Assembly: GCA_965248195.1 (NCBI GenBank)
Contig: CBDFIQ010000002.1
Location: 1-64,000, forward strand
Direction: 5' to 3'
DNA: 64,000 bases
From: Longimicrobiales bacterium
Lineage (GTDB): Bacteria; Gemmatimonadota; Gemmatimonadetes; Longimicrobiales; Gaopeijiaceae
The notes under the pieces are model-generated. The model had not been told where the DNA came from. It made no database searches and saw nothing but the letters and a program-made list of their open reading frames with translations. Positions 1-44,634 of this stretch are shown piece after piece; position 1 is the stretch's first letter, and each line of letters begins with the position of its first letter. Both the position numbers and the translations under genes were made by a program.

Positions 1-768
1 AATCGTTACACAGGCTACGTATCATGGGACCGGGACGAGATTCTGACGTCTGATGTGCTGGAAGGGGAAGACGTGGATGGCGGCGACGAGCGGCAGATTC
101 GCTTCGACGAGATCGCGTCGATCGCCCGGGTCCCGGGCGGAGCTCGGATCGTGCTGGTCAATGGAGTCGAGCGGGACCTCACGGGCACGAGGGACGTGGG
201 CCGCCGAAACCGGGGCATTCAGATTTCGGACATGGGGCTTGGCAGGGTGGAGGTCGAGTGGTCTGAGTTCCGGATGTTGCGACTCCATGAGCCGGAACAG
301 GTCGTTGGCTACGACGCCTTCGATGGAGGCCGGCTCTTGGTCGGTACCGTGGTCACGCAGTCGGGGGAGGAGATCGACGGCCTGATTCGTTGGGACGCGG
401 ACGAAGCAGCGTCGTGGGAGATGCTGAACGGTCGTGCGGACGACGTGGACTTCACCATCGAGCTCGGCAACGTGAGCCGGATCGAACGGGGGGAAGCCTT
501 CGGGGCCACGGTGACTCTTCTGGACGGACGCACCTTCGGGTTGGACGGACGCACTCTCGAGCTGGACGGACGCACCTCCCCGCTGGACGACTCCAATGAC
601 GTCGACTGGGACAACAAGGGGATCCTCATCGCCCCGCTGGATGATAGCGGCACAAGCACAGCCAACGGCAGCGCCAACCCATCCCGGTGGCGTGTGGTCA
701 CCTGGGACGAGTTCCGGGAGATCCGCTTCCGGACCGATGCGACGGCCCGTAGTGGTGGGCAGGAGTAG
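1..768 (+). CDS. hypothetical protein, 5' end outside window
   Basis: Frame open from base 1 to TAG 766-768; acidic repeated beta-type modules (W-D-x-D-E motifs). Confidence 0.75.
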   Translation, partial: NRYTGYVSWDRDEILTSDVLEGEDVDGGDERQIRFDEIASIARVPGGARIVLVNGVERDLTGTRDVGRRNRGIQISDMGLGRVEVEWSEFRMLRLHEPEQVVGYDAFDGGRLLVGTVVTQSGEEIDGLIRWDADEAASWEMLNGRADDVDFTIELGNVSRIERGEAFGATVTLLDGRTFGLDGRTLELDGRTSPLDDSNDVDWDNKGILIAPLDDSGTSTANGSANPSRWRVVTWDEFREIRFRTDATARSGGQE

Positions 769-777
769 GGAGGGGCA

Positions 778-3138: not shown

Positions 3139-3199
3139 GGGTTTTCCGCATCTAACGGATGCAGCTCGCAACCCTTTTCCAAGCATGGGCCGAGGGCGA

Positions 3200-3927
3200 A
3201 GGCGCTCCAAGCCAAGCGCTTCGATCCGTCGCCCGAGCACGGTACTACAGAAGAGCCTGAGCGCGCTGATCAACTGATTGTGGTAGGAACGCGACACCGC
3301 GCCGTCACGGAGCCTGTCGAGGACGTGCCCCCGCAGCTCGCCGGCGAGATCATCGTCTTCGCCGCCCGAGCCGTCGAGGAATCTCCGTGCGTGCCCGAGG
3401 TAGGCCTTGCGCGTGCGGCGAGCATAGCCCCGCAGCCGCATCTCCTCGTCGAAGCGCGCCAGCAGACGCGAGGCGGGATCCCGTGCGGATTCCGTGTCCC
3501 GGAGGGCGGTGGGCGGCACCGGTTCCGTGGCGGGTGGGTGCGGGTCTGCATCTGGAAACAAGGCGCCCGGCCCTACGCCGAGCATGCTCCGCACCGCCTC
3601 GCGGGTGGCGGGGGTGTCGGGGATCCGCCAGATGCGACGCCCCGGGTCCCAGCGCCGGCCCGAAACAGCACGGATCCGGGCGACCAGCTCGAGGCGGTAA
3701 GGCACCGACAGGTGGATCTCGCCATCCGAGAGGTGGCGCGCGCCTCCTCGGACGTCGGAGGGCCGTGGCTGCGGTATCGGGAGCCCGATGGGTCGCGGGA
3801 GTGCATGACGCAACGTTCGGCCTGGGCCGTGGGCGGAGACATGGCCAGCGGGGACCGGTGCAAGGCACGGCGGGGTTGTTGTGGCGCCGTATCGGCCCCC
3901 CCGCGCATATTCAACCGGCCAGGGCAC
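3200..3927 (-). pseudogene. truncated integron-like tyrosine integrase (HARP-like + SAM4 N-terminal domains; catalytic domain missing)
   Basis: FDEEMRLRGYARRTRKAYLGHARRFL...VSRSYHNQLISALRLFCSTVLGR matches the phage-integrase N-terminal SAM-like pattern. Similarity stops at LER (~3200) with no R-H-R-Y residues. Start codon uncertain. Confidence 0.75.
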
Positions 3928-4079
3928 ACGACAGGCCTACACCCTGACCCCACTCTTCCCGGCCGGCGCTAGCCCTCCTGCGCTTCTCTCTCGCAGGCCC
4001 GCCCGGAGCAAAGGGGTCAGGACGGGCCTCGTCAGGCCGAAAAAGACGGGCAGGCTACCATAAGCATATTTCCCGAACC

Positions 4080-4174
4080 CCTTCGCAGATCCGACGCGCG
4101 GGTCACGCTTCCCGCACGTCGCAGATCCTGGTGTGGGGAGGGTTACACGTACGGCGGGGATTCAAACGTTATTC
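4080..4174 (+). other. putative attI-like recombination site
   Basis: GTTATTCGCCATAC at 4168 is 12/14 complementary to GTACGGCGTATAAC at the first attC, which defines the start of cassette 1. A direct repeat CGCAGATCC occurs at ~4085 and ~4120. Confidence 0.6.
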
Positions 4175-4193
4175 GCCATACCCGAGAGCTCTA

Positions 4194-5249
4194 GTGGAAA
4201 GTCAGACGACACTTGCCGAACTAGGAGGGCCAAACTTCGATCCCGAGAGTTCCCGACTCATCCGGACCAGTTGGATGTTGAATGCCAAGGCGACCCTCAC
4301 AATTGAGGACCCGGCCGTTCGCGTACGCTTTCTCGACGAATCTGAGGCGGCACGCCTGCAAGAGAGTATTCGACAGCGGCACGTTTTCTCTCGGGTTTCC
4401 TATGAGCGGTCGTTCTATGTCACCCGAGCCGGCGAGCTGAGTGGGCGCTCCGTGATCGAGGTGACGCTGCCTGGCGATCCGAAATCTGTAGTCACGGATG
4501 CGAGGCGTATCGCCGCAGCCGTTGAGACCGTTGCAGTCGCATCCACAGTCGTGTATCACTCGCGGCGCCAGCTCCATACTGATTTGGGTATCAGGACGCA
4601 CCGAAAGGATGTTGTGGACCTCACGCTGGGGCCGAAGCTCGGCCACCTCAGTGCCAGTTCACAACGGGAGGTTGCAGTTCGGGGAGTTACGCTCGACAAG
4701 CGTTTCGTGAACCGCTTCAAGAGGCTCGAACTTGAGCGAGTCGTGTCGGCTGCCACTGCGGATTCACCAGCCGGGCGGAGGATACAGCAGGCCCTGAACT
4801 GGCTACTGGAATCCCGTATGGATGCTGGGAGGCCTGCCGCTTCCATCAAGTGTGCCATTGCGCTGGAGACGCTGTTAGGCCGGTCGAGCAATGAGCCTTT
4901 GCGCACCACCCTTTCAGAGCGAAGTGCATTTCTACTTTCTGACAATTCCGAGACGCGGGCGAACGTAAGCAGACTCATTAAGGCCTTCTACGATGCCCGC
5001 AGCTCGATCGTGCATGGTTCGACACGCAAGAAGCCCCGCGGGGTGACGGTTGCGTTACTGGAGTCTGCTGAGCGGATCGTATTTCTTGTACTCCTCACGC
5101 TGGCGTGCAACCCACAAGACCTCGGTGCTGACGACGCGTTACAGAAGTGGGTGGACGGACGCCGGTGGGGAGCTCCACAAGGTATCCCACATCGGCCGTT
5201 TCGCCCCGGGGATCTGAAGCGTGCGCTCGACAGAGGTAACAAGAAGTGA
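4194..5249 (+). CDS. HEPN-domain protein (ApeA-like), cassette 1
   Basis: IALETLL...FYDARSSIVHG carries the RxxxxH HEPN motif. The start must lie after the cassette boundary at 4169 (GTG 4194 or ATG 4275). Confidence 0.75.
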   Translation: MESQTTLAELGGPNFDPESSRLIRTSWMLNAKATLTIEDPAVRVRFLDESEAARLQESIRQRHVFSRVSYERSFYVTRAGELSGRSVIEVTLPGDPKSVVTDARRIAAAVETVAVASTVVYHSRRQLHTDLGIRTHRKDVVDLTLGPKLGHLSASSQREVAVRGVTLDKRFVNRFKRLELERVVSAATADSPAGRRIQQALNWLLESRMDAGRPAASIKCAIALETLLGRSSNEPLRTTLSERSAFLLSDNSETRANVSRLIKAFYDARSSIVHGSTRKKPRGVTVALLESAERIVFLVLLTLACNPQDLGADDALQKWVDGRRWGAPQGIPHRPFRPGDLKRALDRGNKK

Positions 5250-5277
5250 GGTCAACAGCCGCTTGTGCTGGTACGGC

Positions 5278-5374
5278 GTATAACAGTGCGGTTGCCGCCT
5301 GCGCTCACTAGGTTCGCTCCGGTGAAGCACGGCGCGCGTTGCGCACCGCGCCGGCAACCTCCAAAACGTTAGGC
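5278..5374 (+). repeat. attC site 1
   Basis: GTATAAC...GTTAGGC with internal palindrome GGTTGCCG...CGGCAACC, 97 bp. Confidence 0.8.
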
Positions 5375-6161
5375 GCCACTGCACGACAGGATAGGACATG
5401 GAACTCGACTGGAGAGACCTGCCAGAAGTCGGTGCGGAGGTGGTCGGTGTGCGGCGGGATGGGTTTACGTCTCATGGCGACAAGATCCGCCACGCTACGT
5501 TCAAACGACTGCATCTCAAGAAGGGCGAGGTCGAAGGGATCGACTTCAGGCACACCCGATTCCTCGACTGCTACTTTCGACATGTGACCTTTCGAGGGTG
5601 CGACTTTACGGGGGCCGTATTCTCGGATTGTGACATGCCTCACGCCGAGTTCATCGAGTGTAAACTGCCGTACTCTCGCTGGAGGAACACGCGCGTAGAC
5701 ATCCAACAGCTGTTGCCAAACCTTCCCCGGGCATGGCCCCATGTGGCGAGAGATCTTTGTCAGAACCTGAGGAAGAATGCGCAGGAACTCGGCGATGGAC
5801 CTGGTGCACGTCGACTGCTGTTTCAGGCTATGGCGTTTCACCGCGCCACCCTGTGGGAGACCATTCTACTAAGGCAGTCGTGGTACAAGCAGCGGTTCGG
5901 GCTAGGCCATAGAGTGGGAGCCCTCTTCAAATGGGTATGGTCCTGGGCGGAGCGGCTCGTTTGGGGCTACGGTGAGCGACCGCTCCTCCTGATGGCGTGG
6001 GGTGCTGCACTCACCTTCATCTTCGGTATCTACTACTACGCCAGCGGCCTCCCAGATGCTCTGGGCGTGGATGGGTCCCTTGCCGGTCCCCTCTCTGCCA
6101 ACGTACGTGAGACACGGAGCACGCAAAGAATTAGAGTAGGGCGAAGGCAGAGAAAACGAAC

Positions 6162-6611
6162 ATGTTGGGACTGCGAGAGAGAATGGAAGAGAATGGTAGT
6201 GCCCCTGGAATCGGGGAGGCCAAGCGAAGCGCGGCAGCTCCTGCGGACCCGGAGGTAGTAGATAGGCCGCTACGCCGGCGGTTCAGTCCATCGTACAAGC
6301 TGCGGATCGTCGAAGAAGCGGACCGGTGCACCGAGCCCGGCGAGGTGGGTCAGCTCCTGCGGCGCGAGGGCCTGTACTCGTCGCACCTGACGACGTGGCG
6401 CAAGGCGGCGCATAGCGGGTCGCTGAAGGCCCTGTCGAAGAAACGCGGCCGCAAGCCGGAGCGGAATCCGCTGGATGAGAAGGTACGCAAGCTGGAGCGG
6501 CAAAACGCACGGCTCGAGAATGAGCTCAGGAAGGCACACCTGATCATCGACGTGCAGGGAAAAGTTGCGGGGCTGCTGGGGATAAGCCTCGACGACGGGA
6601 CGAACTCTTGA
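6162..6611 (+). CDS. IS3-family transposase OrfA
   Basis: RRRFSPSYKLRIVEEAD...LRREGLYSSHL HTH plus coiled coil. Confidence 0.9.
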   Translation: MLGLRERMEENGSAPGIGEAKRSAAAPADPEVVDRPLRRRFSPSYKLRIVEEADRCTEPGEVGQLLRREGLYSSHLTTWRKAAHSGSLKALSKKRGRKPERNPLDEKVRKLERQNARLENELRKAHLIIDVQGKVAGLLGISLDDGTNS

Positions 6612-7615
6612 AGGCGGCCGATGAGCTGGCTAAGCACGTCGGTGTAAAACCGGCGTGCGCGGCTCTCGAGGTCTCCCGATCGACGTTCTACCGTCGTCGA
6701 GGCCCATCGACCGGGCAACGGCAGCCCCGCCCGACGCCCGCCCGGGCATTGAGCGAGACGGAACGAGGCGAGGTCTTCGACACGCTGTGTTCGGAGCGGT
6801 TCGTGGACCGCTCACCCGCCGAGGTGGTGGCCACGCTGCTCGACGAAGAGGTCTACCTGTGCAGCGAACGCACGATGTATCGTGTTCTGGCCTCCGAGGT
6901 GCCGGTTCAGGAACGCCGGGCGCAGCGCACCCATCCCGAGTACAAGAAGCCCGAGTTGATGGCCACGGCGCCGAACCAGGTGTGGTCCTGGGATATCACG
7001 CGGCTACTCGGGCCGAAGAAGTGGAGCTATTACTACCTCTACGTCATCATGGACATCTACAGCCGCTACGTCGTGGGCTGGATGGTGGCGGACCGGGAGA
7101 ACTCGGCCCTGGCCGGCCGGTTGATCCAGCAGAGCTGCCTGAAGCATGGCGTCCAGCCCCGGGTCCTGACCCTGCACTCGGATCGGGGAGCTCCAATGAC
7201 GAGCCAATGCACCGCTCAACTTCTCGCTGACCTCGGCGTGACTCGCTCGTTGAGCCGGCCTCAGGTGTCGGATGACAACCCGTTTTCCGAGGCTCAGTTC
7301 AAAACCTTGAAGTACCATCCCTCGTTTCCCGGGCGGTTCGGGGATCAGGGCCAGGCCAAGACGTTGTGTCGATCGTTCTTCCGCTGGTACAATGCCGAGC
7401 ACCGCCATGGCGGTATCTCGATGCTAACCCCCGAGCAGGTCCACTTCGGGAACGCCGATCAGGTCATTGCCGGCAGGAAATCCGTGCTCCGCGAAGCATG
7501 GGCCGCTCATCCCGAACGCTTCGTCACAGGTGTGCCGAAGCCCAAACCGCTCCCGGAGGCCGTCTACATCAATCCTCCCATCCCTTCCCTCACCACACAG
7601 GATATTGCTCTCTAA
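6608..7615 (+). CDS. IS3-family DDE transposase OrfB
   Basis: PNQVWSWDIT, HSDRG, DDNPFSEAQFKTLK (rve DDE). Confidence 0.95.
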   Translation: MKAADELAKHVGVKPACAALEVSRSTFYRRRGPSTGQRQPRPTPARALSETERGEVFDTLCSERFVDRSPAEVVATLLDEEVYLCSERTMYRVLASEVPVQERRAQRTHPEYKKPELMATAPNQVWSWDITRLLGPKKWSYYYLYVIMDIYSRYVVGWMVADRENSALAGRLIQQSCLKHGVQPRVLTLHSDRGAPMTSQCTAQLLADLGVTRSLSRPQVSDDNPFSEAQFKTLKYHPSFPGRFGDQGQAKTLCRSFFRWYNAEHRHGGISMLTPEQVHFGNADQVIAGRKSVLREAWAAHPERFVTGVPKPKPLPEAVYINPPIPSLTTQDIAL

Positions 7616-7806
7616 TTAATCCCGTAGAGTGTCCCATTGTCGTTGACAGGTTCCGGTCGGCTTGGAGAGGCTGTTACCTTCAGTGCCCTCGCGTTTGTTG
7701 GGAATGCGGACCGTGCGCCATGGCCCGGTGGACCGACCGCCGCGATTGCAGTACAGGGTGCACTCGGCATTGTGTTCATTGGGGTGTTCGCCGCTGTGGT
7801 GTACAG

Positions 7807-8523
7807 ATGGATATCCATTCGACAGGGCTGAGCATCGCGCCTCAGTGGGTGCCGCATGTCTTGGCGGCGTGGGTGTGCGGATCCGCTGCGCGAGGCGATG
7901 TGGACTCGTCGAGCGATCTCGACGTCACGGTCGTCATAGGGGACGATCTTTCACCCAGCGCGTTCACTGGAGAGCCGGTAGTCTGTACTGCTGCGCCACT
8001 CATCGACTTCTCCGTCTACACGCTGAGTGGCTTCAAGAACCTGATTACCCCTCCGAGTCTTTTCGCCTGGCACCTGGCGCTTGAGGGCCAACTCATCGTT
8101 GGAGCGGACGGTGAAGTTGTCGCGATGCTTGAGCACTTGGGGCCCTTCGTTGACCATGTAGAGGACCTCCTCACTCTTCGGCACCTTGCCCTCGAGTGTG
8201 CCGAATCATTGAGCTTGGGACCGCAGTCGCTCGTTTTCGATCTCGGTGTCCTGGGCACTGTCGTAAGGAACACGGCATTGATTGTAACGCACTTCGACGG
8301 GCGTCCCGACTTCTCTCGGTCAGCCCCCGAGCGACTCGTCAATCATACGGCGGTCCCGCTGCCCATTGGTCCATCTCAGTACGCCGCACTCGCTCAAGCC
8401 AGAAAGGCCGGTGAGGGTGTGGCTATCGTACCCACGGTTTCCTGGCTCGATGCCAAAGGACTAACTGAGCGCGTAACTGAATGGGTCACTCAGTGTCTGC
8501 ACTACGTTGGAGGAGCTTCATGA
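7807..8523 (+). CDS. minimal nucleotidyltransferase-domain protein (cassette 2 gene 2)
   Basis: GSAARGDVDSSSDLDV is the GS...DxD NTase motif; overlaps the end of the channel gene. Confidence 0.8.
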   Translation: MDIHSTGLSIAPQWVPHVLAAWVCGSAARGDVDSSSDLDVTVVIGDDLSPSAFTGEPVVCTAAPLIDFSVYTLSGFKNLITPPSLFAWHLALEGQLIVGADGEVVAMLEHLGPFVDHVEDLLTLRHLALECAESLSLGPQSLVFDLGVLGTVVRNTALIVTHFDGRPDFSRSAPERLVNHTAVPLPIGPSQYAALAQARKAGEGVAIVPTVSWLDAKGLTERVTEWVTQCLHYVGGAS

Positions 8524-8846
8524 GCACCCATCCGTTTGTCACGAGAGTTCGGTTTGAGCGTCTGGTGGTCTCGACCGTCAATGGGGCACGCCCGGAATCG
8601 GTGCGTGAGCTTTCAGGCCTGGGACCGGAGGAGATCTCAAGTTGGGCCGACTTTCTCCCCGTTGCCCTTCCAGAGGCATCCGTGACGCGAGTGCGGCGTG
8701 CCCTCCTAGACCTCTCTTCACGTATTCGCGGGTTTTCATCCAACTCACACCGGGGGGGTGGCTGGAGTTCACACGACGACGTCGGCGACCTCTCTGGTGA
8801 CCTGACTTGGGTGGTCGGGGTGCTCGGTGAGAACCGCAGCGCCTAA
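8520..8846 (+). CDS. small hypothetical protein (cassette 2 gene 3)
   Basis: ATGA overlap with the NTase, RBS GGAGGAG, stop TAA lies inside the attC R'' box GCCTAAC. Confidence 0.65.
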   Translation: MSTHPFVTRVRFERLVVSTVNGARPESVRELSGLGPEEISSWADFLPVALPEASVTRVRRALLDLSSRIRGFSSNSHRGGGWSSHDDVGDLSGDLTWVVGVLGENRSA

Positions 8847-8994
8847 CACTGGGCCTCCGGCTCCGGCCGCATTCGCGGCCTCCGACCCAACCGGCCAAAG
8901 ATGGGCGGGCGTTGGTCAGCAGAGATGATAGATCGAAGGAAGCAGCAGTAAGGAACGAATGTGCGGGCCGGTTCGGACGCCCTGAACGTTATGT
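8841..8994 (+). repeat. attC site 2
   Basis: GCCTAAC...GTTATGT; GCGCCTAAC is the exact complement of cassette start GTTAGGCGC (5368). Confidence 0.9.
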
Positions 8995-9146
8995 GTCATC
9001 CTGATAGCGAGCTGGGCACAGCTGAAGAATCGGTGGTTAGTCGGGAGAACGAAAGGCCTCTTCTTCGCCGAAGGTGTCCCGGTAAATGTTCCCTCGAAGT
9101 GGGTCTCCGATGCCACTGACCTTGTGGAGTCTTTTCGAGAATCGGT

Positions 9147-10202
9147 ATGTCTGAGACGCTGATCATCCTCGGTGCAGGAGCCTCCGCGAGTTGCGGCGCG
9201 CCCCTGATGGCGAACTTCCTGGACCTAGCGGAAGAAGCGCGCAGCGGGTCTCTCGACACGGAGGCAGCGGGCCACTTCGACGCTGTGTTCAATGCGATCG
9301 AAGCTCTGAACCGAGCCCATACCAAAGCGAGTCTGGACACCGACAACGTCGAAGATGTATTCGGAGCTCTGGAGATGGCCGATCTCCTAGAGTTGGACTC
9401 CGTACCCACCGAACTCGCTGCTGCGATGAGGACGGTGATAGCACGGACAATAGAGGCCCACGTCGAGTTCCCGATCACCTCTGGGAGCATCTCGCCGGCG
9501 GAGGACTACCTACTTCTTTTTCTTTCAAATTGGATCAAGGGTGGGATGAGTAGGGCGGTTCCTCGACAGACGGTGCTCACGTTCAATTACGACTGTGCCT
9601 TGGACTTCGCGCTGTGGAAGAACGGACTCGGCATAGACTATGGCCTAAGCGACGATGGACTTGAGCGGCCGGGTGTGGAGTTGCTCAAGCTCCACGGATC
9701 CCTCAACTGGGTTCGGACCGCTGACGACATCGTTCCCTACCCGATTGGTCAGCTAGAGAAGCGCATCACCCATCGCCTCAGCACCATGCCCCCTGGCGGC
9801 TCGGAGTCCGTGACCGTTCCGTTCTCGCAGATGGCACTGCAGCAGCATCACAAGGGCACGGGTGTGGACGGGGAACTTGCCATCGTGCCCCCGGTTTGGA
9901 GTAAGCTCGAGCATTACGGTGCGATGCGGCGGATTTGGTCGCTCGCCGCTGAGGCTCTTCGGCGAGCAGATCGCATCGTTGTTTGCGGCTATTCCCTTCC
10001 GGCCACGGATCAGTTCTTCCGTCATCTCTACGCGCTCGGCACAATCGGCCCGACTCGAATCAAGGGATTCCACGTCCTCGATCCCGACCGGGGAGTCGAG
10101 GCGCGTTTCCAGAACCTCCTCGGGGCACTGACTCGTCAGAGATTCGAGTGGGTTAATGCACGCTCCGATTACCTGGCCCATTGGCTTGAGAAGCTCGTCT
10201 AA
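9147..10202 (+). CDS. SIR2-like domain protein (cassette 3)
   Basis: ILGAGAS, TFNYD, LLKLHGSLNW and CGYSLP motifs of the SIR2_2 type. Confidence 0.85.
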   Translation: MSETLIILGAGASASCGAPLMANFLDLAEEARSGSLDTEAAGHFDAVFNAIEALNRAHTKASLDTDNVEDVFGALEMADLLELDSVPTELAAAMRTVIARTIEAHVEFPITSGSISPAEDYLLLFLSNWIKGGMSRAVPRQTVLTFNYDCALDFALWKNGLGIDYGLSDDGLERPGVELLKLHGSLNWVRTADDIVPYPIGQLEKRITHRLSTMPPGGSESVTVPFSQMALQQHHKGTGVDGELAIVPPVWSKLEHYGAMRRIWSLAAEALRRADRIVVCGYSLPATDQFFRHLYALGTIGPTRIKGFHVLDPDRGVEARFQNLLGALTRQRFEWVNARSDYLAHWLEKLV

Positions 10203-10275
10203 TCTCCGGAATGGGATGACAATCTCGTTGGAGCAGGGAGAGCCTGAACGTGGGATCGAGGTGAGGATGGACGAC

Positions 10276-10432
10276 ACATAACAACTGGGCCTCCGGCTCC
10301 GGCCGCCTGCAGCGGCCTCCGACCCAACCGGCCACAAACGGGAGGGTGTGGTAAGGAGGAGATGATAGGATTGAACGAAGCAGAAGTAGCGAACGAAGGT
10401 GAGGGCCGGTTCGGAGGCCCTGAACGTTATGT
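10276..10432 (+). repeat. attC site 3
   Basis: ACATAAC...GTTATGT with the same arms as attC2; GGACGACACATAAC complements cassette start GTTATGTGTCATCC. Confidence 0.9.
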
Positions 10433-10518
10433 GGAAGAAGCTTCGGGTTGGGGAATGCCGGGAAGGTCGCGGGCCTGGGGATCCTTGGTGGATGCTCCGG
10501 CGCCAGTTGGAGTGTATA

Positions 10519-10590
10519 GAGGGTAACGGGGTTGTATAGAGGTAATGTAACAGCGTATATTACCTCTATTCTCTGAGATGTTACCTCCAT
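10519..10590. promoter_or_regulatory. putative operator/promoter of the Fic cassette
   Basis: AT-rich; inverted repeat ATAGAGGTAAT (10536-46) / ATTACCTCTAT (10559-69) plus extra half-sites. Confidence 0.5.
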
Positions 10591-10612
10591 TCCACCCGAT
10601 GGTTCTGTCGCC

Positions 10613-11674
10613 ATGCAATCCCTGGACTCAGCGTTTCTCGACCGCCTTACGCTGACGACGGCACACGGGTCGACCCTCCGGGCGTTGGGAGAGCACCGAG
10701 GCGAGCAGGAGCTCTACAGCCAGCAGACTCCGCAAGCGTTGGAGACGCTCCGCACCGTCGCGATGGTGGAATCGACCGAGTCGTCGAATCGCCTGGAGGG
10801 CGTTGTAGCTGCGCCTGACCGACTTCGGGAGGTTGTTCTTCGCGACGCGACCCCATCGGACCGCTCAGAACAGGAGATCGCCGGATATCGCGACGCGTTG
10901 GCGCTGATCCATGAGTCGGCGGATCACATGCCGGTAAGCGTGAATGTGATTCAACAGCTCCACGCGATGCTATACCGCTATCAGCCGGGAAGTGGTGGTC
11001 GCTGGAAGTCCCGGCAGAATGACATCGTAGAGCGTGCCCCGGACGGATCGATCGTGCGAGTTCGGTTCCGCCCGGTAAGCCCCGTGGCCACTCCGGGCGC
11101 GATGCGGGATCTCATCAGCCGTTGGGACCAAGCTCTCGATCAGCAACGGGAGCCGTTGTTGATGATACCATTAGCAGTGCTGGACTTCCTGTGCATTCAT
11201 CCCTTCGCCGACGGCAATGGCCGCACAGCACGACTGCTGACTCTGCTTCTTCTGTACCGATCCCGATACGCGGTGGGGTGGTACATCAGCTTGGAGCGGG
11301 TCATCGAAGAAAGCAGGGACACCTACTACGAGGCGCTCGAGGCAAGTTCGCGGGGGTGGCATGAGGGCCAGCACGATCCGTTCCCGTGGTTGGAGTACTT
11401 CTGGGGTGTTCTCCTGCGAGCGTACGCCGAGTTTCGGGATCGGGCCGGACGACTCATGACGGCACGAGGCTCAAAGACGGCGCTGGTCGAAGGTGCGGTG
11501 GAGCGGCGCAGACGGCCGTTCGCAATCTCGGACATTGAGAACGATTGCCCCGGGGTCAGCCGCGATATGATTCGTCACGTGTTGCGGCGAATGCGGGACG
11601 AAGGAAGAGTGCAGGTACGCGGACGGGGTCGAGGCGCAAGGTGGGAGGTCTTAGAGGACCAGAGTGAAGCCTAG
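10613..11674 (+). CDS. Fic family protein (cassette 4)
   Basis: HPFADGNGRTAR catalytic motif, N-terminal SNRLEG inhibitory motif, C-terminal wHTH-like region. Confidence 0.9.
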   Translation: MQSLDSAFLDRLTLTTAHGSTLRALGEHRGEQELYSQQTPQALETLRTVAMVESTESSNRLEGVVAAPDRLREVVLRDATPSDRSEQEIAGYRDALALIHESADHMPVSVNVIQQLHAMLYRYQPGSGGRWKSRQNDIVERAPDGSIVRVRFRPVSPVATPGAMRDLISRWDQALDQQREPLLMIPLAVLDFLCIHPFADGNGRTARLLTLLLLYRSRYAVGWYISLERVIEESRDTYYEALEASSRGWHEGQHDPFPWLEYFWGVLLRAYAEFRDRAGRLMTARGSKTALVEGAVERRRRPFAISDIENDCPGVSRDMIRHVLRRMRDEGRVQVRGRGRGARWEVLEDQSEA

Positions 11675-11908
11675 AACCGGATGTGTGGATGAAGCTGATT
11701 GGACGGATCACCTAGCTGGCTGAAGGCCACCACGCTTCCACCACATAACACGGGGCCTCCGGCTCGGGCCGCTGTAGGCGGCCCTCGACCCAACCGGCCT
11801 CGACGACGCCGAGCACGGTCGCTGGGTCAGCCTGCTGGTAGCTTTGCCTGAGGACCTGAGCATCCCGCCAGCCACCGGCAGCGGCAACGTCCTGATCGGG
11901 TAGATGCT

Positions 11909-13284
11909 GGTCAAGTCCCGATTTGTGTGTAAAAGCGGAGGAAGCTCCTCGCCTTCGGCTAGGCTGCTTGGGCGACCTCCTGTTTCTGGAGGAGTGAGAG
12001 GTCGAGGTAACGCCGGTCGCCCCAGACGTGTGTGGTCCTGAGTGCGACGGCCGTGATGAGCCTGAGGGCGCTGGCCCGGTCCGGGAAGGCGCCGGCGGCC
12101 TTGATCCTGCGTTTGATCTCGCCGTGCAGCCGCTCGAGGCTGTTGGTGGTACGCAGCCGGGGCCAGTGCGCCTCGGGGAACGCGTAGAACTGCGTCGCTG
12201 CCCCGAAGCCCCGCTCCAGGACCTCCACGGCCTCGGGCAGCTCCTTCTTCCAGCGTGCGCCGAACTCGCCCAGGAGCTTCTTCGCCTCGGCGAGTCCGGA
12301 TGTCTGGAAGATCACCGAGACCTCACGCGCCATGCGCTTGCGTAGGCGGTGGGGGACCCTCGCCCCCACATTACGCTGCAGATGGACCGTACACCTCTGA
12401 CGGCGTGCCTCGGGCAGGAAGCGGCGGACCGCAGCTGCCAGGCCTGCGTGCTCATCGGCGATCACGAGCTCGACACCGCCGAGGCCGCGGTCCTGGAGTT
12501 GCTCGAGGAGCTCCGACCAGCTCTGCTGCGACTCCTCAGCGCCCAGCGTGACGGCCAGGAGCCGTCGGTGACCCTCAGGGCCCACTGCATACGCCACGAG
12601 CGCACTCACGTTCTCGACTTTGCGGGCCCAGCGGGCGTCCAAGAACGTGGCGTCCAGGTACAGATAGGGGTGAGGCCCCTCGATCGGCGCACGGCGCAGC
12701 CCTTCCACGGCCTCGTCGAGCCGTTTTGCCACACGACTCACCGTCGAGCGCCCAACACGCTCGCCCATCAGCGCCTCGGTGACGTCGCCCATCTTGCGCT
12801 GTGACACGCCGCTCACATACGCCTCGACCATCATCTCGTCGAGCTCGGGGCTCCTGCGCTGGTAGCGGCCGATCACGTCGGCCGGCGAACCGTTGTCCCG
12901 GCTCCGGGGCATGGCGACCTCGATCTGCCCCAGGCTCGTCAGCAGCCGCCTCAGGTATGTGCCGTTCCTATGGTCCTTCCGGCTTCCCACCCGCTCGAAG
13001 CGGCGTGCACCTACCATGGCCTTCAGCTCCTCTTCCAGCACCATCTCGAGCGTCAGCCGGATCGCGCCTTGAAACAGCTCGCGCAAATCATCGCGTAGCT
13101 CGTCTTGCGTGGCCCGACCGATCTCCACAATCTCTTGCATCGGAAGCTCCTCTCCGGTTCCGAGCCTGCTCTGCAGACCCGGACTCCCGGGTTCATGTGA
13201 CAGTGAACAACAACAGAGGAGCTTCCGTTTTTCTTTCCCTCCTGTCCAGCTTATCCGCTTTTACACAAATCTAGGGACACTACC
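11909..13284 (-). mobile_element. IS256-family element, copy 1 (1376 bp)
   Basis: Imperfect 31-bp terminal IRs ending TGTGTAAAAGCGGA; matches 42932-44307. Confidence 0.95.
11959..13140 (-). CDS. IS256-family (mutator) transposase
   Basis: RNGTYLR, LYLDA, QRCTVH and RTTNSLERLHGEIKRR motifs. Confidence 0.95.
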   Translation of the reverse strand: MQEIVEIGRATQDELRDDLRELFQGAIRLTLEMVLEEELKAMVGARRFERVGSRKDHRNGTYLRRLLTSLGQIEVAMPRSRDNGSPADVIGRYQRRSPELDEMMVEAYVSGVSQRKMGDVTEALMGERVGRSTVSRVAKRLDEAVEGLRRAPIEGPHPYLYLDATFLDARWARKVENVSALVAYAVGPEGHRRLLAVTLGAEESQQSWSELLEQLQDRGLGGVELVIADEHAGLAAAVRRFLPEARRQRCTVHLQRNVGARVPHRLRKRMAREVSVIFQTSGLAEAKKLLGEFGARWKKELPEAVEVLERGFGAATQFYAFPEAHWPRLRTTNSLERLHGEIKRRIKAAGAFPDRASALRLITAVALRTTHVWGDRRYLDLSLLQKQEVAQAA

Positions 13285-13456
13285 GGTCGAAGAATGTGGC
13301 GGTAGATCTAGGCAGGCATTAGAGAATATGGTGCGGGCCGGTTCGGAGGCCCTGGAACGTTATGTGCAATCGCTGGGGGAGAGCGGCACCCTAGGGCGAT
13401 AGAAGAGTGAGTTAGTCAGTGCCAGTCGCCGCACGTCTAGATGGGGGCAGAGGGAC

Positions 13457-14179
13457 ATGAGCTACCAACAGGACTCGTACCTCACCGACCACCTTGCGGT
13501 GAGCGCACAGCTTTGGGTCCAGGAGTTCAGGGCGTTCTGGGGTCTGGATTCGGACGCAGTTCCCGAGGGCGTGGAGCCACAACAGTGGGAGGTCGCAAAG
13601 CTCCTCGACGCGCTAACTGGCCAGGTCGTGAGCGCGGCTAAGACGCTTGAGCGTTCCCCGGGGGACCCGGACGAGGTGCTCGATTCGTACTTCAAGCGGT
13701 TCGGCGAACCGTTGTCTGAGCATCCGCTTTTTCGCCAGGCCCTCGAGGCTCATCTAGCCGAGGACCTTGAAGACGAGCTGGAGAAGATGAGCGCTCACGC
13801 GGTTTGCCTACTCGACTACCTCGTGTCAATTCGGCACGAGCGTCCACGCGCCTACATGGCACGCGTCGGCGCCTGCTATCTGCGTGGACTGGATACGGAA
13901 ACGGTCGTGATGGCGGGCGCCGTCCTCGATGCGGCCATGCAGGAGACCTTCGATGACGCAGTGATCCGAGAGGCGGGCATCAAGTGCGGACGCTACATAT
14001 CTCTCGGCAACCGGATCGAGTACGCGATCCAATCCGGAGTGCTGACGGAAGCCGAAGGTAAAAAGGCGTTCTTTGTTGCACACGAGAGGAACAAGGCTGT
14101 CCATGCCGCGCCCGGCTCGGCCGCTGACCCTGACGACGTCCTTGAGGAACTCGCGGCTGTGCTTGACGCGCTTATGTAG
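13457..14179 (+). CDS. HEPN/DUF4145-like protein (cassette 5)
   Basis: C-terminal TVVMAGAVLD...SLGNRIE...ERNKAVH (RxxxxH). Confidence 0.65.
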   Translation: MSYQQDSYLTDHLAVSAQLWVQEFRAFWGLDSDAVPEGVEPQQWEVAKLLDALTGQVVSAAKTLERSPGDPDEVLDSYFKRFGEPLSEHPLFRQALEAHLAEDLEDELEKMSAHAVCLLDYLVSIRHERPRAYMARVGACYLRGLDTETVVMAGAVLDAAMQETFDDAVIREAGIKCGRYISLGNRIEYAIQSGVLTEAEGKKAFFVAHERNKAVHAAPGSAADPDDVLEELAAVLDALM

Positions 14180-14336
14180 GAGCGTCGACTGCGACAGCAC
14201 ATAACACTGGGCCTCCGGCTCCGGCCGCATGCGCGGCCTTCGACCCAACCGGCCCAAACGAAGGTGGCTTCGGTCATCGAAGGTGATTGAACGAAGCGGA
14301 ACCTGTCAACGACAATGGGACACTCTACGGGATTAA

Positions 14337-15344
14337 TTAGAGAGCAATATCCTGTGTGGTGAGGGAAGGGATGGGAGGATTGATGTAGACGGCCTCCGGG
14401 AGCGGTTTGGGCTTCGGCACACCTGTGACGAAGCGTTCGGGATGAGCGGCCCATGCTTCGCGGAGCACGGATTTCCTGCCGGCAATGACCTGATCGGCGT
14501 TCCCGAAGTGGACCTGCTCGGGGGTTAGCATCGAGATACCGCCATGGCGGTGCTCGGCATTGTACCAGCGGAAGAACGATCGACACAACGTCTTGGCCTG
14601 GCCCTGATCCCCGAACCGCCCGGGAAACGAGGGATGGTACTTCAAGGTTTTGAACTGAGCCTCGGAAAACGGGTTGTCATCCGACACCTGAGGCCGGCTC
14701 AACGAGCGAGTCACGCCGAGGTCAGCGAGAAGTTGAGCGGTGCATTGGCTCGTCATTGGAGCTCCCCGATCCGAGTGCAGGGTCAGGACCCGGGGCTGGA
14801 CGCCATGCTTCAGGCAGCTCTGCTGGATCAACCGGCCGGCCAGGGCCGAGTTCTCCCGGTCCGCCACCATCCAGCCCACGACGTAGCGGCTGTAGATGTC
14901 CATGATGACGTAGAGGTAGTAATAGCTCCACTTCTTCGGCCCGAGTAGCCGCGTGATATCCCAGGACCACACCTGGTTCGGCGCCGTGGCCATCAACTCG
15001 GGCTTCTTGTACTCGGGATGGGTGCGCTGCGCCCGGCGTTCCTGAACCGGCACCTCGGAGGCCAGAACACGATACATCGTGCGTTCGCTGCACAGGTAGA
15101 CCTCTTCGTCGAGCAGCGTGGCCACCACCTCGGCGGGTGAGCGGTCCACGAACCGCTCCGAACACAGCGTGTCGAAGACCTCGCCTCGTTCCGTCTCGCT
15201 CAATGCCCGGGCGGGCGTCGGGCGGGGCTGCCGTTGCCCGGTCGATGGGCCTCGACGACGGTAGAACGTCGATCGGGAGACCTCGAGAGCCGCGCACGCC
15301 GGTTTTACACCGACGTGCTTAGCCAGCTCATCGGCCGCCTTCAA
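14337..15344 (-). CDS. IS3-family transposase OrfB
   Basis: Identical protein to 6608-7615. Confidence 0.95.
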   Translation of the reverse strand: MKAADELAKHVGVKPACAALEVSRSTFYRRRGPSTGQRQPRPTPARALSETERGEVFDTLCSERFVDRSPAEVVATLLDEEVYLCSERTMYRVLASEVPVQERRAQRTHPEYKKPELMATAPNQVWSWDITRLLGPKKWSYYYLYVIMDIYSRYVVGWMVADRENSALAGRLIQQSCLKHGVQPRVLTLHSDRGAPMTSQCTAQLLADLGVTRSLSRPQVSDDNPFSEAQFKTLKYHPSFPGRFGDQGQAKTLCRSFFRWYNAEHRHGGISMLTPEQVHFGNADQVIAGRKSVLREAWAAHPERFVTGVPKPKPLPEAVYINPPIPSLTTQDIAL

Positions 15345-15790
15345 GAGTTCGTCCCGTCGTCGAGGCTTATCCCCAGCAGCCCCGCAACTTTTCCCTGCAC
15401 GTCGATGATCAGGTGTGCCTTCCTGAGCTCATTCTCGAGCCGTGCGTTTTGCCGCTCCAGCTTGCGTACCTTCTCATCCAGCGGATTCCGCTCCGGCTTG
15501 CGGCCGCGTTTCTTCGACAGGGCCTTCAGCGACCCGCTATGCGCCGCCTTGCGCCACGTCGTCAGGTGCGACGAGTACAGGCCCTCGCGCCGCAGGAGCT
15601 GACCCACCTCGCCGGGCTCGGTGCACCGGTCCGCTTCTTCGACGATCCGCAGCTTGTACGATGGACTGAACCGCCGGCGTAGCGGCCTATCTACTACCTC
15701 CGGGTCCGCAGGAGCTGCCGCGCTTCGCTTGGCCTCCCCGATTCCAGGGGCACTACCATTCTCTTCCATTCTCTCTCGCAGTCCCAACAT
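15341..15790 (-). CDS. IS3-family transposase OrfA
   Basis: Identical protein to 6162-6611. Confidence 0.9.
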   Translation of the reverse strand: MLGLRERMEENGSAPGIGEAKRSAAAPADPEVVDRPLRRRFSPSYKLRIVEEADRCTEPGEVGQLLRREGLYSSHLTTWRKAAHSGSLKALSKKRGRKPERNPLDEKVRKLERQNARLENELRKAHLIIDVQGKVAGLLGISLDDGTNS

Positions 15791-16707
15791 GTTCGTTTTC
15801 TCTGCCTTCGCCCTACTCTAATTCTTTGCGTGCTCCGTGTCTCACGTACGTTGGCAGAGAGGGAAGAAAGCAGAAGTAAGGAACGAAAGTGAGGGCCGGT
15901 TCGGAGGCCCTGAACGTTACACGACATGCCTTCATCAGGACAACGACAAGATGATGCGGCTACTCGGGAGGTGGACCATGTGGATTCGTGCGGCGGGGCT
16001 GAGGGTGGCCTCAGTATACACCGTCTTGCTCACTGCCGGGGTCGGGCTCCCCGGCCACGTTCAGGCTCAGTTTCCTGGGGACTCGACTCAGGTGGTAGAC
16101 GTTCTCGGAAGCCCGACGAGCGCACCCACCCTGAGTCGTCGAACCCGCAACTCAAAGCAAGCGGACACCTGCGGCAAAAAACTGGGCCGACGGCGTGTTG
16201 TGCTCATGTGTCTTGACCTCTGGCCCCATAGAAGGGAATCCAAACGCCCTATCGGGGTTCGCCCCTAGCGTAAGCGAGCCGACACCCTGGCCTTGAATGC
16301 TGAACCCAGAGCAGGGTGCGCGCACGCCGTCCAGCCATGCAAGGACGAGACGAGAGGATGCGTGGATGGGCAAGAGATCTTCGAGGTCAGTCCCGCGGCT
16401 GCTTGCGCCTCACCCTCAGCGCATAGGATACTGGGCTCGAGATGCGCGGGCCGAAGATACCGGCCCGGTCCACCTAGCTCCGGAGCCCACCTGTGTCGTC
16501 GATTCGTATGCTGAGCACCGTCGAGTTCGAGCCGTTTGGCGGCGGGACCGAGGTCCGTTGGAAGATGCCGGCCGAGGGACCTCTCCTACACTTTCTGCTC
16601 GTGCGCGTGTGCCAGGCTATGGCGAGGTTCGGGATCGAGCTCGATGAAGCGCTCGACCGTGTCACTGCCCTCCTTTCCGATCCTGACGCGGCGGACGTGA
16701 CCTGACC

Positions 16708-18366
16708 ATGATCGCTCCGGGAGACCCGGCACCGGACTTCTCACTCGCCCGGCTGGACGGCGCCGATTGGCGACTCGAGGAGGCGGCGGCTGAGGGTCCC
16801 CTTCTCCTCGCTTTCATCGAGACCGACTGTCCCACCTGCCGCCTCACCGTCCCATACCTGAAGCGCTTTGCCGAGGCGCTCGGCCCCGAGGGCCACCGGG
16901 TCGTCGTGATCTCGCAGGACGGTGGCCCCGAAACCCGAGAGCTGGCGGAGGCCTATGACGTGAGCTTCCCGGTGCTCCTGGACCTGGATCTGGATGCGTC
17001 TCGCAGCTACGATCCCCCAAGCGTCCCGGCGCTATTCCTCGTGGGCCAGGGGGGACAGGTCGAGTTTTCCGAGGTGGGCTTCCACAAGGAGGACCTCAAC
17101 TCGGCCGCGGAGAGAATGCTCTCTGACTTCGGACTCCCGGTGCGGACGGTGGCCGACCTCGACGACGGGGCTCCCCTGATGAAGCCCGGGTGTGCCTCCC
17201 GCCACCTCGAGTCGGCCATGGCCGTCGGGTCTGTCGAGGCGTTGGGCGGGGCATCTGAGAGGGCGTCTGTCGAGGCATCGCCCGAGCCGATCGATCTACT
17301 TCCCGAGCGCGCGCCGCGGGCCTCACGGCTCACGCTGGCTGAGGACCAGGATCCGTACGAGTACTGCATGAGGGCCGGCTTCTCGCCCTTCCTTCCCGTG
17401 GTCCCGCCCACGGCGGAGCGGGTGGACGCCTTCTTGGCGGTGATCCCACATCCACCGGATCGTGTGGTGGGTTTGGTCCCGCCCTGCTACGGGCCCGCTA
17501 CGATCGAGAAGATTGCAGCCAACGCGGTGATGGCGGGCTGCGAGCCGGAGTACATGGAGGTTCTGATCCCTGTGGTCCGGGCCGCTTGCGACGAGCGCTT
17601 CAACCTGCACGGGGTGCAGGCGACCACGCACTCGGCTACTCCGCTGATCATTCTGAGCGGGCCGGCCGCCACGCGCTTGGGCTTCGCGAGCGGGGCGGGG
17701 GTGTTCGGAAACGTGGCCCGTGCCAACAGCTCCGTGGGCCGGGCGCTCCAGCTCGTTATGGCGAACCTGGGAGGTGCGCTCCCCGGTGAGATCGATATGT
17801 CGGCGCTGGGAAACCCGGGACGCTTCTCGTACTGCGTGGCCGAGAATCACGAGGAGAGCCCGTGGGAGCCTCTCCATGTGGAGCTCGGCTTCGATCAGGA
17901 CGAGAGCACCGTCACACTGTTCGCCGCCGGCGGGCTCACGGAGGTGAGCGAACACACGGCTCGAACCGGGGCCGGGGTGCTCCGCACCATCGCCGCGACG
18001 CTCTCCATGGTCTGGAGCTGGAGGCGGTGCGGGCGGGTCGATGCGGTGGTCGTCTTGTGCCCGGAGCACGCGGCGACCTTGAGCTCCGACGGATTCAGCA
18101 AGAGTGACGTGCGCGACTTCCTCTTCGAGCACACCGGCGTTCCCTTGCGGGCGTTCGACCATGAAGGTACTGAGGGCACCCAACTCCGTGATACCTACGA
18201 GGAGATCCTGATCGACGGCGAGCCCCACTATCGGAAGTTCAAGGACCCGTCGCAGATTCGGATCATCGTGGCGGGCGGCACGGCCGGAAAGTTCTCTGCG
18301 GTCCTGGGGGGTTGGCTGGCGGGCACCGAGGGATCTCAGATCGTGACATACCCCGTGAAATGGTAA
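16708..18366 (+). CDS. redoxin (AhpC/TSA, CxxC) fused to a UGSC-associated oxidoreductase-like domain
   Basis: GDPAPDFSL...TDCPTC N-terminus; LPVVPPT, KIAANAVMAGC, ANSSVGRAL C-terminal domain. Confidence 0.8.
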   Translation: MIAPGDPAPDFSLARLDGADWRLEEAAAEGPLLLAFIETDCPTCRLTVPYLKRFAEALGPEGHRVVVISQDGGPETRELAEAYDVSFPVLLDLDLDASRSYDPPSVPALFLVGQGGQVEFSEVGFHKEDLNSAAERMLSDFGLPVRTVADLDDGAPLMKPGCASRHLESAMAVGSVEALGGASERASVEASPEPIDLLPERAPRASRLTLAEDQDPYEYCMRAGFSPFLPVVPPTAERVDAFLAVIPHPPDRVVGLVPPCYGPATIEKIAANAVMAGCEPEYMEVLIPVVRAACDERFNLHGVQATTHSATPLIILSGPAATRLGFASGAGVFGNVARANSSVGRALQLVMANLGGALPGEIDMSALGNPGRFSYCVAENHEESPWEPLHVELGFDQDESTVTLFAAGGLTEVSEHTARTGAGVLRTIAATLSMVWSWRRCGRVDAVVVLCPEHAATLSSDGFSKSDVRDFLFEHTGVPLRAFDHEGTEGTQLRDTYEEILIDGEPHYRKFKDPSQIRIIVAGGTAGKFSAVLGGWLAGTEGSQIVTYPVKW

Positions 18367-41985: not shown

Positions 41986-42045
41986 GACTGGTCCGAAGGC
42001 CGTTGTTCTAGGCCACCCATAAAGGTAGACTAAGGGGCATGAGGA

Positions 42046-42420
<375 letters not shown>

Positions 42421-42429
42421 TCCGCCGTT

Positions 42430-42503
<74 letters not shown>

Positions 42504-42690: not shown

Positions 42691-42931
42691 GAAGTAAAGC
42701 GAGTCTCCGTAAGGCGTTACAGCCATGCGGGGCCTCTGTCGTAAGACTTTATTTTATGGATTGCATCCCGTTTGCATCCGGAAATGAGTACAAAAAAATG
42801 CAGACGGAGCTACTCACCGGCCTCGACGACGCCGAGCACGGTCGCTGGGTCAGCCTGCTGGTAGCTTTGCCTGAGGACCTGAGCATCCCGCCAGCCACCG
42901 GCAGCGGCAACGTCCTGATCGGGTAGATGCT

Positions 42932-44307: not shown

Positions 44308-44634
44308 GTAGATGCTTCCGCTCCGTCGCCCAGAGGCGTCGGTATGGGTGGAAGACACCGCCCTGCAGCTTGGGCAGCTTTGCGAGGCTCTCGGACTTCA
44401 GGAGCCAACGGGCGGTCAGGTCACGACGTATAGGGAGATCGGGTCTCCGTGGGGAGGGGAAGAGCGGCACATCTCCCACCCTGGGATTCCCCAAAAGGTA
44501 AATGTCCAAACCTTGCCGTGTGCGATCGCTGATCGGCGTCACGGTCGCGTAGCCCATTTTGTCTTCGGCCTCACGCCATCTGATGGCGCCGTGCGGCATA
44601 TGTTTGGCTGAATTGGTGGATCGACGAGTATTGC

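Follow-up and report, generated by a model that had tools for sequence, protein, structure and literature searches.

Can gene cassettes be captured at hairpin sites by a tyrosine recombinase that is not an integron integrase of the classical IntI type? This question is raised by a stretch of 64,000 nucleotides from a Longimicrobiales bacterium (positions 1 to 64,000 of contig CBDFIQ010000002.1, hereafter the window), in which an array of cassettes, each ending in an attC recombination site, lies beside the remnant of a tyrosine recombinase gene. In the current view, as set out in passages of PMC7790495, cassette capture is made possible by the I2 insertion of IntI, which Xer proteins lack, and by the extrahelical bases through which I2 recognises attC. 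Both features also serve as marks for integron detection. An earlier note, made from the sequence alone, had read the locus as an integron-like cassette-capture system run by a recombinase outside the classical IntI clade. Our analysis indicates that the segment is probably a decayed chromosomal integron of a non-classical type, for which an intact recombinase of the same family would be the arrays' own integrase.

The array spans positions 4168-15922 and is made of five head-to-tail cassettes followed by a partial sixth. GTT boxes begin on the plus strand at 4168, 5368, 8988, 10426 and 13359, and the matching AAC-ended 7-mer boxes lie at 5278-5284, 8841-8847, 10276-10282, 11743-11749 and 14199-14205, so that all five pairs are located where the earlier note had placed them. 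Each GTT box is the reverse complement of the AAC box in the attC closing that cassette, with 10 of 10 bases matching in one pair and 9 of 10 in four. Taken alone, this boundary rule is a loose criterion, as 2 of 200 dinucleotide shuffles of positions 3000-17000 also yielded four cassettes in a row, separated by gaps of attC size. The GTT/AAC pairing is symmetric under reverse complement and does not give the strand; an "opposite strand" control was meaningless and uninformative for this very reason. Stronger evidence for the array comes from the stretches between each AAC and the next GTT, which form a conserved repeat family (D1-D5) of about 160 nt, with a short form of about 100 nt at 5272-5374. 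A covariance model (R1), built mostly from other genomes, found the three unbroken sites of the window at 5274-5377, 8837-8997 and 10272-10435 with E-values from 9e-11 to 1e-17 (66.2 bits for attC1, 102.2 bits for attC3). This support is independent of the box pairs. At gathering thresholds, Rfam matched only RNase P and tRNA in the window and no attC family. Cassette anatomy and conserved hairpin attCs thus bear out the reading of an integron-type array, each cassette being closed by a foldable attC with R'', L'', L' and R' boxes and its open reading frames (ORFs) lying just upstream of their own attC on the plus strand. The parts of the array are as follows.

4060..4175, plus strand: candidate attI, with the crossover between G and TT at 4168; conserved with genome G186; the bases after GTT are complementary to R'' of attC1.
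4169..5368, plus strand: cassette 1, an ORF of unknown function ending at 5249; attC1 at 5272-5374, short form of about 100 nt.
5369..8988, plus strand: cassette 2, a pentapeptide-repeat gene from 5398, a nucleotidyltransferase-like ORF at about 7780-8523 and a small ORF at 8481-8846; attC2 at 8838-8994.
8989..10426, plus strand: cassette 3, a SIR2-like gene at 9147-10202 (PADLOC SIR2, 2.7e-9); attC3 at 10270-10432.
10427..13359, plus strand: cassette 4, a Fic-family gene at 10613-11674; attC4 split into 11741-11792 and 13287-13365.
13360..15916, plus strand: cassette 5, an ORF of unknown function at 13457-14179; attC5 split into 14196-14296 and 15864-15922.
15917..16486, plus strand: start of a sixth cassette, with a GTTACACG box at 15916 after the right half of attC5; cut at the segment end, 16486, with no closing attC before it.

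The fold of these sites was analysed on 64 non-redundant attCs of the same type (type A) from ten genomes and the window. The type-A layout is an R box, a spacer of 4-6 nt, an L box, a one-sided insertion, and then a second helix. In this structure 91.8% of the cells are paired, against 26-45% when the partners are slid by 1-3 columns. Pairs changing on both sides were seen for 7 of 9 pairs in the L box and 6 of 7 in the second helix; such covariation indicates that selection on the fold has continued. The folding with paired boxes expected in the earlier note was therefore recovered. The L box is an uninterrupted helix of 8-9 bp (89.6% of cells paired), and none of the 64 sites shows a bulge column, that is, the extrahelical bases of a folded integron attC are missing from it. 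Instead, an insertion of 16-41 nt (median 29) lies between L'' and the second helix on the 5' arm of the top strand, opposite a single base on the other arm. In most sites it takes the form CTCCG, a small GC hairpin, and CTCCG again, with a minimum free energy (MFE) of -3 kcal/mol or lower in 47 of 64. RNAalifold run on a MAFFT alignment recovered only the L box; the side hairpin was folded sequence by sequence, the alignment gaps there being inconsistently placed.

Arrays read at canonical-IntI loci of the same phylum (three with plain IntI, two with an IntI carrying the N-terminal domain described below) have one extra base in L'', for example CGTTT[G]CTAC versus GTAGAAACG, which is the classical bulge. 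The type-A model had no matches in 12 canonical-IntI loci. At the canonical loci L156, L158 and L161 (genomes G252, G436 and G457), intI reads towards its own array, the "inverted" order, if the bulged base lies in the L'' arm.

The recombinase gene beside the array is represented in the window by the following features.

3196..3732, minus strand: tyrosine recombinase gene remnant, with an N-terminal extra domain, a Pro-rich linker and a SAM-like domain; start codon uncertain, frame open to 3927.
3223..3465, minus strand: SAM-like core-binding domain (Phage_int_SAM_4, PF13495), residues 156-236 of the remnant protein P0001, 29.8 bits; TIGR02249 profile positions 2-85.
3565..3747, minus strand: HARP-like N-terminal domain of 61 aa, beta-beta-alpha-beta-beta-alpha in an AlphaFold2 model made with a 22-sequence alignment (mean predicted local distance difference test score, pLDDT, 84.8).

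Residues 67-245 of P0001 are 91% identical to residues 38-216 of a 423-aa relative (P0002). Homology stops at residue 216 of P0002, 55 nt from the segment edge at 3141. The remnant lacks the catalytic domain, which measures 207 residues in the closest relative, and has no PF00589 match; it reaches only 22.8 bits against the integron integrase model TIGR02249, whose cut-off is 265. The catalytic R-K-H-R-H-Y set is thus missing from the window gene and is found in its relatives. A search of this genome recovered neither a second family gene nor a second N-domain. Since the catalytic half is missing, no intact copy was found and insertion sequence (IS) copies split the array, the local integron is dead and its cassettes cannot be acted on today. 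Consequently, of the integrase proposed in the earlier note, the quoted segment is present, but the gene is truncated and nothing is run by it now; its SAM4 motif does differ from that of IntI, but this difference is not diagnostic. Elsewhere in the same genome (G000), a canonical intI pseudogene lies at C1:1112697-1113260 (locus L001/L168; 238.7 bits over TIGR02249 profile positions 120-307, two in-frame TAG stops), and no type-A attC was found within 10 kb on either side of it.

What an intact enzyme would look like was read from the relatives. The family search gave 81 of them, mostly from Gemmatimonadota/Longimicrobiales metagenomes, most being 360-430 aa long with PF13495 and PF00589, and full-length members measuring about 365-430 aa. 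In the alignment of 28 full-length members, no variation occurs at R255, K280 or H345, and conservation is 90% or higher at R348, H371 and Y380. Frame-breaking stops occur inside the matches of several copies besides that of the window. Among the models, TIGR02249 ranks first or second for the family proteins, but 10 of 10 tested relatives stayed under its cut-off of 265 bits (190-208 bits), the match falling into two stretches with profile positions of about 185-235 skipped. The XerC, XerD and XerA models gave 171-183, 172-187 and 193-208 bits, also under their cut-offs (335, 330 and 220) in all ten. The alignment with VchIntIA (2a3v) is likewise in two pieces, with 25 family-profile positions opposite 67 chain residues; the family therefore lacks about 42 residues of the IntI-specific insertion, located in the I2 helix region, which separates the K box from the HxxR box. 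Archaeal XerA (4a8e), the best solved-structure match, was aligned in one continuous piece over the SAM-like and catalytic domains (E 5e-52). The full-length homologues are thus not ordinary IntI. An I2-less recombinase beside bulge-less attCs therefore makes a matched pair.

The phylogeny agrees with this. A quick maximum-likelihood tree was built from 57 rows, with SH-aLRT as its sole support measure and no bootstrap. In it, an IntI clade of 13 rows (support 100) contained the IntI1 of an E. coli plasmid, one integrase from Gemmatirosa, 8 Gemmatimonadota IntIs and 3 IntIs fused to the HARP-like domain. It can be taken as the classical clade because one Gemmatimonadota IntI is 46.5% identical to IntI1 over the whole length. 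All 26 family rows fell outside it, as the earlier note had proposed for the recombinase of the window; together with recombinases associated with IS91 and others from Bacteroidota, they form its sister group (support 86). The node uniting this group with the IntI clade has support 98, and the archaeal relatives branched outside both. The rows famArr_L143, famArr_L138, IntI_L158, Xer_C2_2032 and L015 were left out because their frames were wrong, their branch was long or their ORF was empty. In a contig scan with the family alignment A1, the generic pattern PH[VI]LRHSFA dominated, so that the matches were distant recombinases of many phyla rather than close family members. Fourteen loci of such recombinases (L009-L030 set: Bacteroidota, Treponemataceae) were checked, and none had a clear repeat array. 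These other-phylum recombinases, of 30-40% identity, also carry the N-terminal domain, and in the tree one from a Treponemataceae metagenome-assembled genome (MAG) falls together with a family member.

The position of the family gene was also compared. Among 401 genomes of the class, 47 family gene matches were found, from 40 genomes, and 12 of them lie on contigs long enough to show both sides. All 12 have an array of repeats of about 150 nt downstream, on the gene's strand, and no arrays were found in the upstream flanks of 20 family genes. An iterated nhmmer profile confirmed 10 of the 12 arrays, with 76 full-length sites, all on the gene's strand; those of G294 and G255, of a different attC subtype, were confirmed by reading. 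Arrays are long and homogeneous: locus L140 has 13 sites, and G387 and G252 have more than 20 apiece. In 34 cassettes the longer ORF shares the top strand of the attC, against 16 in which it is on the opposite strand. The cassette boundary rule also holds in these arrays, and in several genomes box complementarity follows the cassette, not the repeat. At seven loci a GTT box complementary to the R'' box of a downstream attC lies 79-260 nt past the stop codon; the first boundary of L140, TTTA/GTTAAGCGCC, is 83 nt past it and matches the GGCGCTTAAC of the first attC. Because arrays and GTT boxes lie downstream on the gene's strand, the usual order is gene, attI and cassettes, all in one direction.

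In the window, the gene is divergent from the array, with the candidate attI about 240 bp upstream of the remnant's open frame. The region 4060-4175 (ACCCCTTCGCA ... ACGGCGGGRAT ... ACGTTAT) is conserved upstream of a 69%-identical gene in G186, until just before the end of the G186 contig. The divergent integrase of the earlier note is therefore real in the window and shared with G186, but in the 12 relatives the gene reads towards the array. An IS-mediated inversion was considered as the origin of the divergent order and rejected, as the split-attC halves keep the plus orientation and G186 shares the divergent attI. In both orders the gene stands at the attI end, 12 of 12 long-contig loci and the two divergent cases included, and the candidate attI, by position, adjoins the recombinase gene and carries the first cassette boundary. 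Judged on these comparisons of sequence, the data support a cassette-capture system whose recombinase lies outside the IntI clade.

Several observations weigh against this reading. The gene order of the window is the minority one and its gene is broken; the activity of the family is one that we infer from position and conservation. The family does not form one clade in the quick tree, which needs 3 label changes (inner supports 65-87). The G387/G192 subfamily has a degenerate side hairpin, an MFE above -3 kcal/mol was obtained for 17 of 64 sites, and the folding z-scores of single attCs versus mononucleotide shuffles are modest (-0.6 to -2.8). A further difficulty concerns the distribution of canonical IntI, since the arrays could be ordinary ones served in trans by a canonical IntI that is present, lost or unassembled, the Xer-like neighbour stabilising or resolving the array or being a passenger. 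Canonical IntI is common (over cut-off in 31 of 121 sampled genomes of the bacterial family), and this genome holds the intI pseudogene mentioned above. In the same sample type-A attCs were found in 54 genomes and the N-domain in 47, with both in 34, the N-domain only in 13, attCs only in 20 and neither in 54. A TIGR02249 match was present in 16 of the 34 genomes with both, where IntI may act in trans, and the 20 genomes with type-A attCs but no N-domain gene include 5 with a canonical IntI match, one of them just below cut-off. These counts are not independent, the attC model having been trained on arrays beside the family gene and some training genomes being in the sample; they are also inflated by related genomes, and most genomes are fragmented MAGs. 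The reverse test, in which the type-A model was applied to canonical IntI loci, is fairer: there the arrays are bulged and type-A sites number zero. Moreover, 18 of the 34 genomes have no TIGR02249 match at E<=1e-65, including the near-complete G162 (1 contig), G192 (3) and G387 (7), which hold large arrays. Among five array-bearing genomes, canonical IntI was present in two (G252, 227 kb away; G294, on another contig) and was not found in the other three. With the family gene at the attI end wherever both sides can be seen, service in trans appears unlikely.

It is rather more improbable that the family is a true IntI offshoot which secondarily lost I2 and activity, its arrays being fossils kept by inertia. 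Such an origin would fit the rank of TIGR02249 among the models, the 98%-supported larger clade shared with IntI, a HARP-like N-domain possible on both, and the broken state of the window copy and several others. Against it, the catalytic residues are conserved across the 28 full-length members, the attC helices covary, the arrays beside the gene are long and homogeneous, and the family is excluded from the IntI clade with support 100. Finally, the repeats could be a lineage-specific interspersed repeat, of the repetitive extragenic palindrome or miniature inverted-repeat transposable element kind (REP/MITE-like), whose cassette look would be a coincidence. The looseness of the boundary rule and the scattering of type-A sites in some genomes are compatible with it, but there is one ORF-sized unit per repeat with the strand bias given above, the boxes follow the cassette, and the sites form tight clusters that start at a fixed site beside one gene family. 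This reading is already disfavoured, and we give it very little credence.

If the family recombinase is indeed the integrase of these arrays, the intact enzyme would combine, judging from the relatives, the HARP-like N-domain, a SAM-like domain and a catalytic domain of Xer length with R-K-H-R-H-Y. It would act like IntI, cutting between G and TT of a folded attC strand and joining it to attI or to another attC, and the single exchange would be resolved by replication. In the likeliest mechanism, the folded strand would imitate a duplex site with two arms, in the manner of the single-stranded CTX-phage DNA used by XerC, and the one-sided insertion of about 29 nt could mark the strand used. A second kind of integron may be envisaged on this basis, in which a lineage that never had I2, or lost it, is combined with attCs where a one-sided branch (the hairpin between two CTCCG motifs) replaces the bulges as the mark of strand and polarity; we regard the chances for and against this proposal as evenly balanced.

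The role of the N-terminal domain was also considered. The earlier note had seen a resemblance to HARP, and a weak likeness exists: Pfam HARP (PF07443) has weak matches in 12 of 22 members (best E 5.4e-6; 14.6 bits and E 0.025 in the window copy, cut-off 25), DUF5710 matches 7 of the 22, and the top PDB match in Foldseek was the SMARCAL1 HARP domain (4o66; E 0.12, probability 0.90, TM 0.55), followed by the XPB N-terminal domain. Structure prediction gave a confident small fold, but the HARP identity is only weakly matched and VIA-align against all PDB representatives returned no specific winner (Z<=5.2 with unrelated folds on top; XPB 4.5, UvsW 4.4). The name HARP-like is thus plausible for the predicted fold but unproven. 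Three canonical IntIs (G411:C56, G213:C178, G425:C144) carry this domain as a fusion, and the arrays on the two contigs read out of three have bulged attCs. The HARP-IntIs (L163 8103-9317, L164 8434-9636 and L165 635-1909, all on the minus strand) possess the IntI insertion, exceed the TIGR02249 cut-off and have frames of 490-577 aa; the bulged arrays are those of L163 and L164. Also, the array-linked recombinases of G294 and G255 appear to be without the N-domain, as their match to P0002 starts only at about residue 124 and neither is among the N-domain matches. Because it occurs on canonical IntIs and is apparently missing in these two members, the domain does not track the absence of I2. 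The suggestion that it recognises folded single-stranded attC is therefore unsupported, and its use as a reader of the side hairpin was dropped, the domain also being present on canonical IntIs with bulge-type attCs.

The cassettes of the window carry defence-type genes, namely Fic, a SIR2-like gene and a pair formed by a pentapeptide-repeat gene and a nucleotidyltransferase. The Fic gene of cassette 4 matched PADLOC SoFic (2e-37) and Pfam Fic (1.8e-15). In cassette 2, matches were obtained to Pfam pentapeptide families, and those of the NTP_transf type were below cut-off. The gene pair of this cassette (5398-8523) weakly resembles HalA/HalB of the Hailong defence system, with E-values of 2e-5 and 3e-6 lying far under the cut-offs, and an IS3-family insertion parts the pentapeptide-repeat gene from the nucleotidyltransferase-like ORF. 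The ORFs of cassettes 1 and 5 matched no family in Pfam, NCBIfam or PADLOC. The listed GTG start of the cassette 1 ORF, at 4131, precedes the cassette boundary, and in-frame starts occur at 4194 and later.

Three IS copies interrupt the array, in cassette 2, attC4 and attC5, and the whole segment is bounded as a unit.

6089-7655: IS3-family element of 1567 bp, inside the pentapeptide-repeat gene of cassette 2.
11793-13286: IS256-family element with an extra piece of 116 nt, inside attC4; transposase at 11959-13140 on the minus strand (PF00872, 1.4e-99).
14297-15863: second IS3-family copy, identical and inverted, inside attC5.
3141..16486, no strand: whole segment of 13,346 bp holding the recombinase remnant and the array; missing from an alternative contig, where the flanks are joined.

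The IS3-family element has 52 copies in the genome and the IS256-family element 104. Only two IS256-family copies, the one here and that at 42816-44308, are preceded by the 116-nt piece (11793-11908 and 42816-42931), which could represent either another small mobile unit or an extended form of the element; its copy at 42816 stands just after an RNase P RNA (42043-42427) and a tRNA (42430-42503). As a second contig of the assembly (C1) has both flanks joined without it, segment 3141-16486 is an indel between haplotypes or repeats of the same assembly. The left flank is C1:1001-4140, the reverse complement of window 1-3140 at 100% identity, and the segment's left edge abuts the stop codon of a large plus-strand gene at 3141. 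The right flank (C1:1-966 versus window 16635-17600) is 97% identical, with a difference of about 100 nt in a small ORF at 16493-16705. Further long exact duplications connect the ends of the two contigs, and the assembly may contain mixed haplotypes or unresolved repeats. A same-genus genome, G141, was tried as the ancestral state and was uninformative, its flanks being 1.1 Mb apart and both the attC type and the family gene being missing. A second IS-riddled cassette array is present in this genome at C1:95000-105000 on the minus strand, with attCs of both the 100-nt and the 160-nt form (approximate lengths) and no family recombinase; it ends at IS256 copies, beyond which lie an IS91-type transposase and the 295-aa recombinase belonging to it (C1:105215-107311).

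The element of the window is itself a fossil of little direct consequence. If the reading is true, cassette capture at hairpin sites has more than one molecular solution, and many of the attC clusters at present classed as "integrase-less" would possess an integrase that has gone unrecognised. If the family is active, the definition of the integron widens, some "integrase-less" attC clusters would be explained, and a natural test case becomes available for how an Xer-like enzyme acting on folded DNA is limited to a single strand exchange. A defence-rich cassette pool in a poorly studied phylum is opened up as well. Integrons as such have been reported in Gemmatimonadota (in passages of PMC8618304); among the open-access papers and bioRxiv preprints searched, none was found in which a recombinase of this sort is described together with attC arrays.

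Among known systems, the category CALIN of IntegronFinder (PMC4889954), a cluster of attC sites lacking an integron integrase, resembles the window in that no working integrase is nearby. It differs in that a dedicated recombinase gene, a remnant in the window, stands at the attI end. A tool based on IntI domains would probably file the array of the window, and those of the relatives, as CALIN. Archaeal XerA (PDB 4a8e, 5hxy) resembles the family by its continuous alignment and rank among solved structures, whereas the family stays under the NF040815 cut-off (193-208 versus 220 bits), XerA has no N-terminal HARP-like domain and the archaeal relatives lie outside the clade of IntI plus family. 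XerC and XerD act on folded single-stranded DNA of CTX phage, among the integrative mobile elements exploiting Xer (IMEX), according to passages of PMC7790495. By the proposed mechanism, the family would be alike, an I2-less recombinase of Xer length working on a hairpin that imitates a duplex two-arm site; here, however, the sites lie at the ends of arrayed cassettes and have a dedicated recombinase next to them, and the family is under the cut-offs of the XerC, XerD and XerA models. Finally, the arrays share with sedentary chromosomal integrons, such as the Vibrio cholerae superintegron (VchIntIA with its Vibrio cholerae repeats, VCR) and the forms whose intI reads like the cassettes, promoterless cassettes made of an ORF plus attC, GTT/AAC boxes with outer bases that move along with the cassette, homogeneous hairpin attCs, and an attI beside the recombinase gene. 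They are also alike in defence-rich cassettes, since defence genes in cassettes of chromosomal integrons are already in print (bioRxiv 10.1101/2024.07.02.601686). The present system differs from these integrons by a recombinase that lacks about 42 residues of the IntI insertion and falls outside the IntI clade, by an extra HARP-like N-domain, and by type-A sites whose L box is unbulged and whose insertion of about 29 nt lies on one arm.

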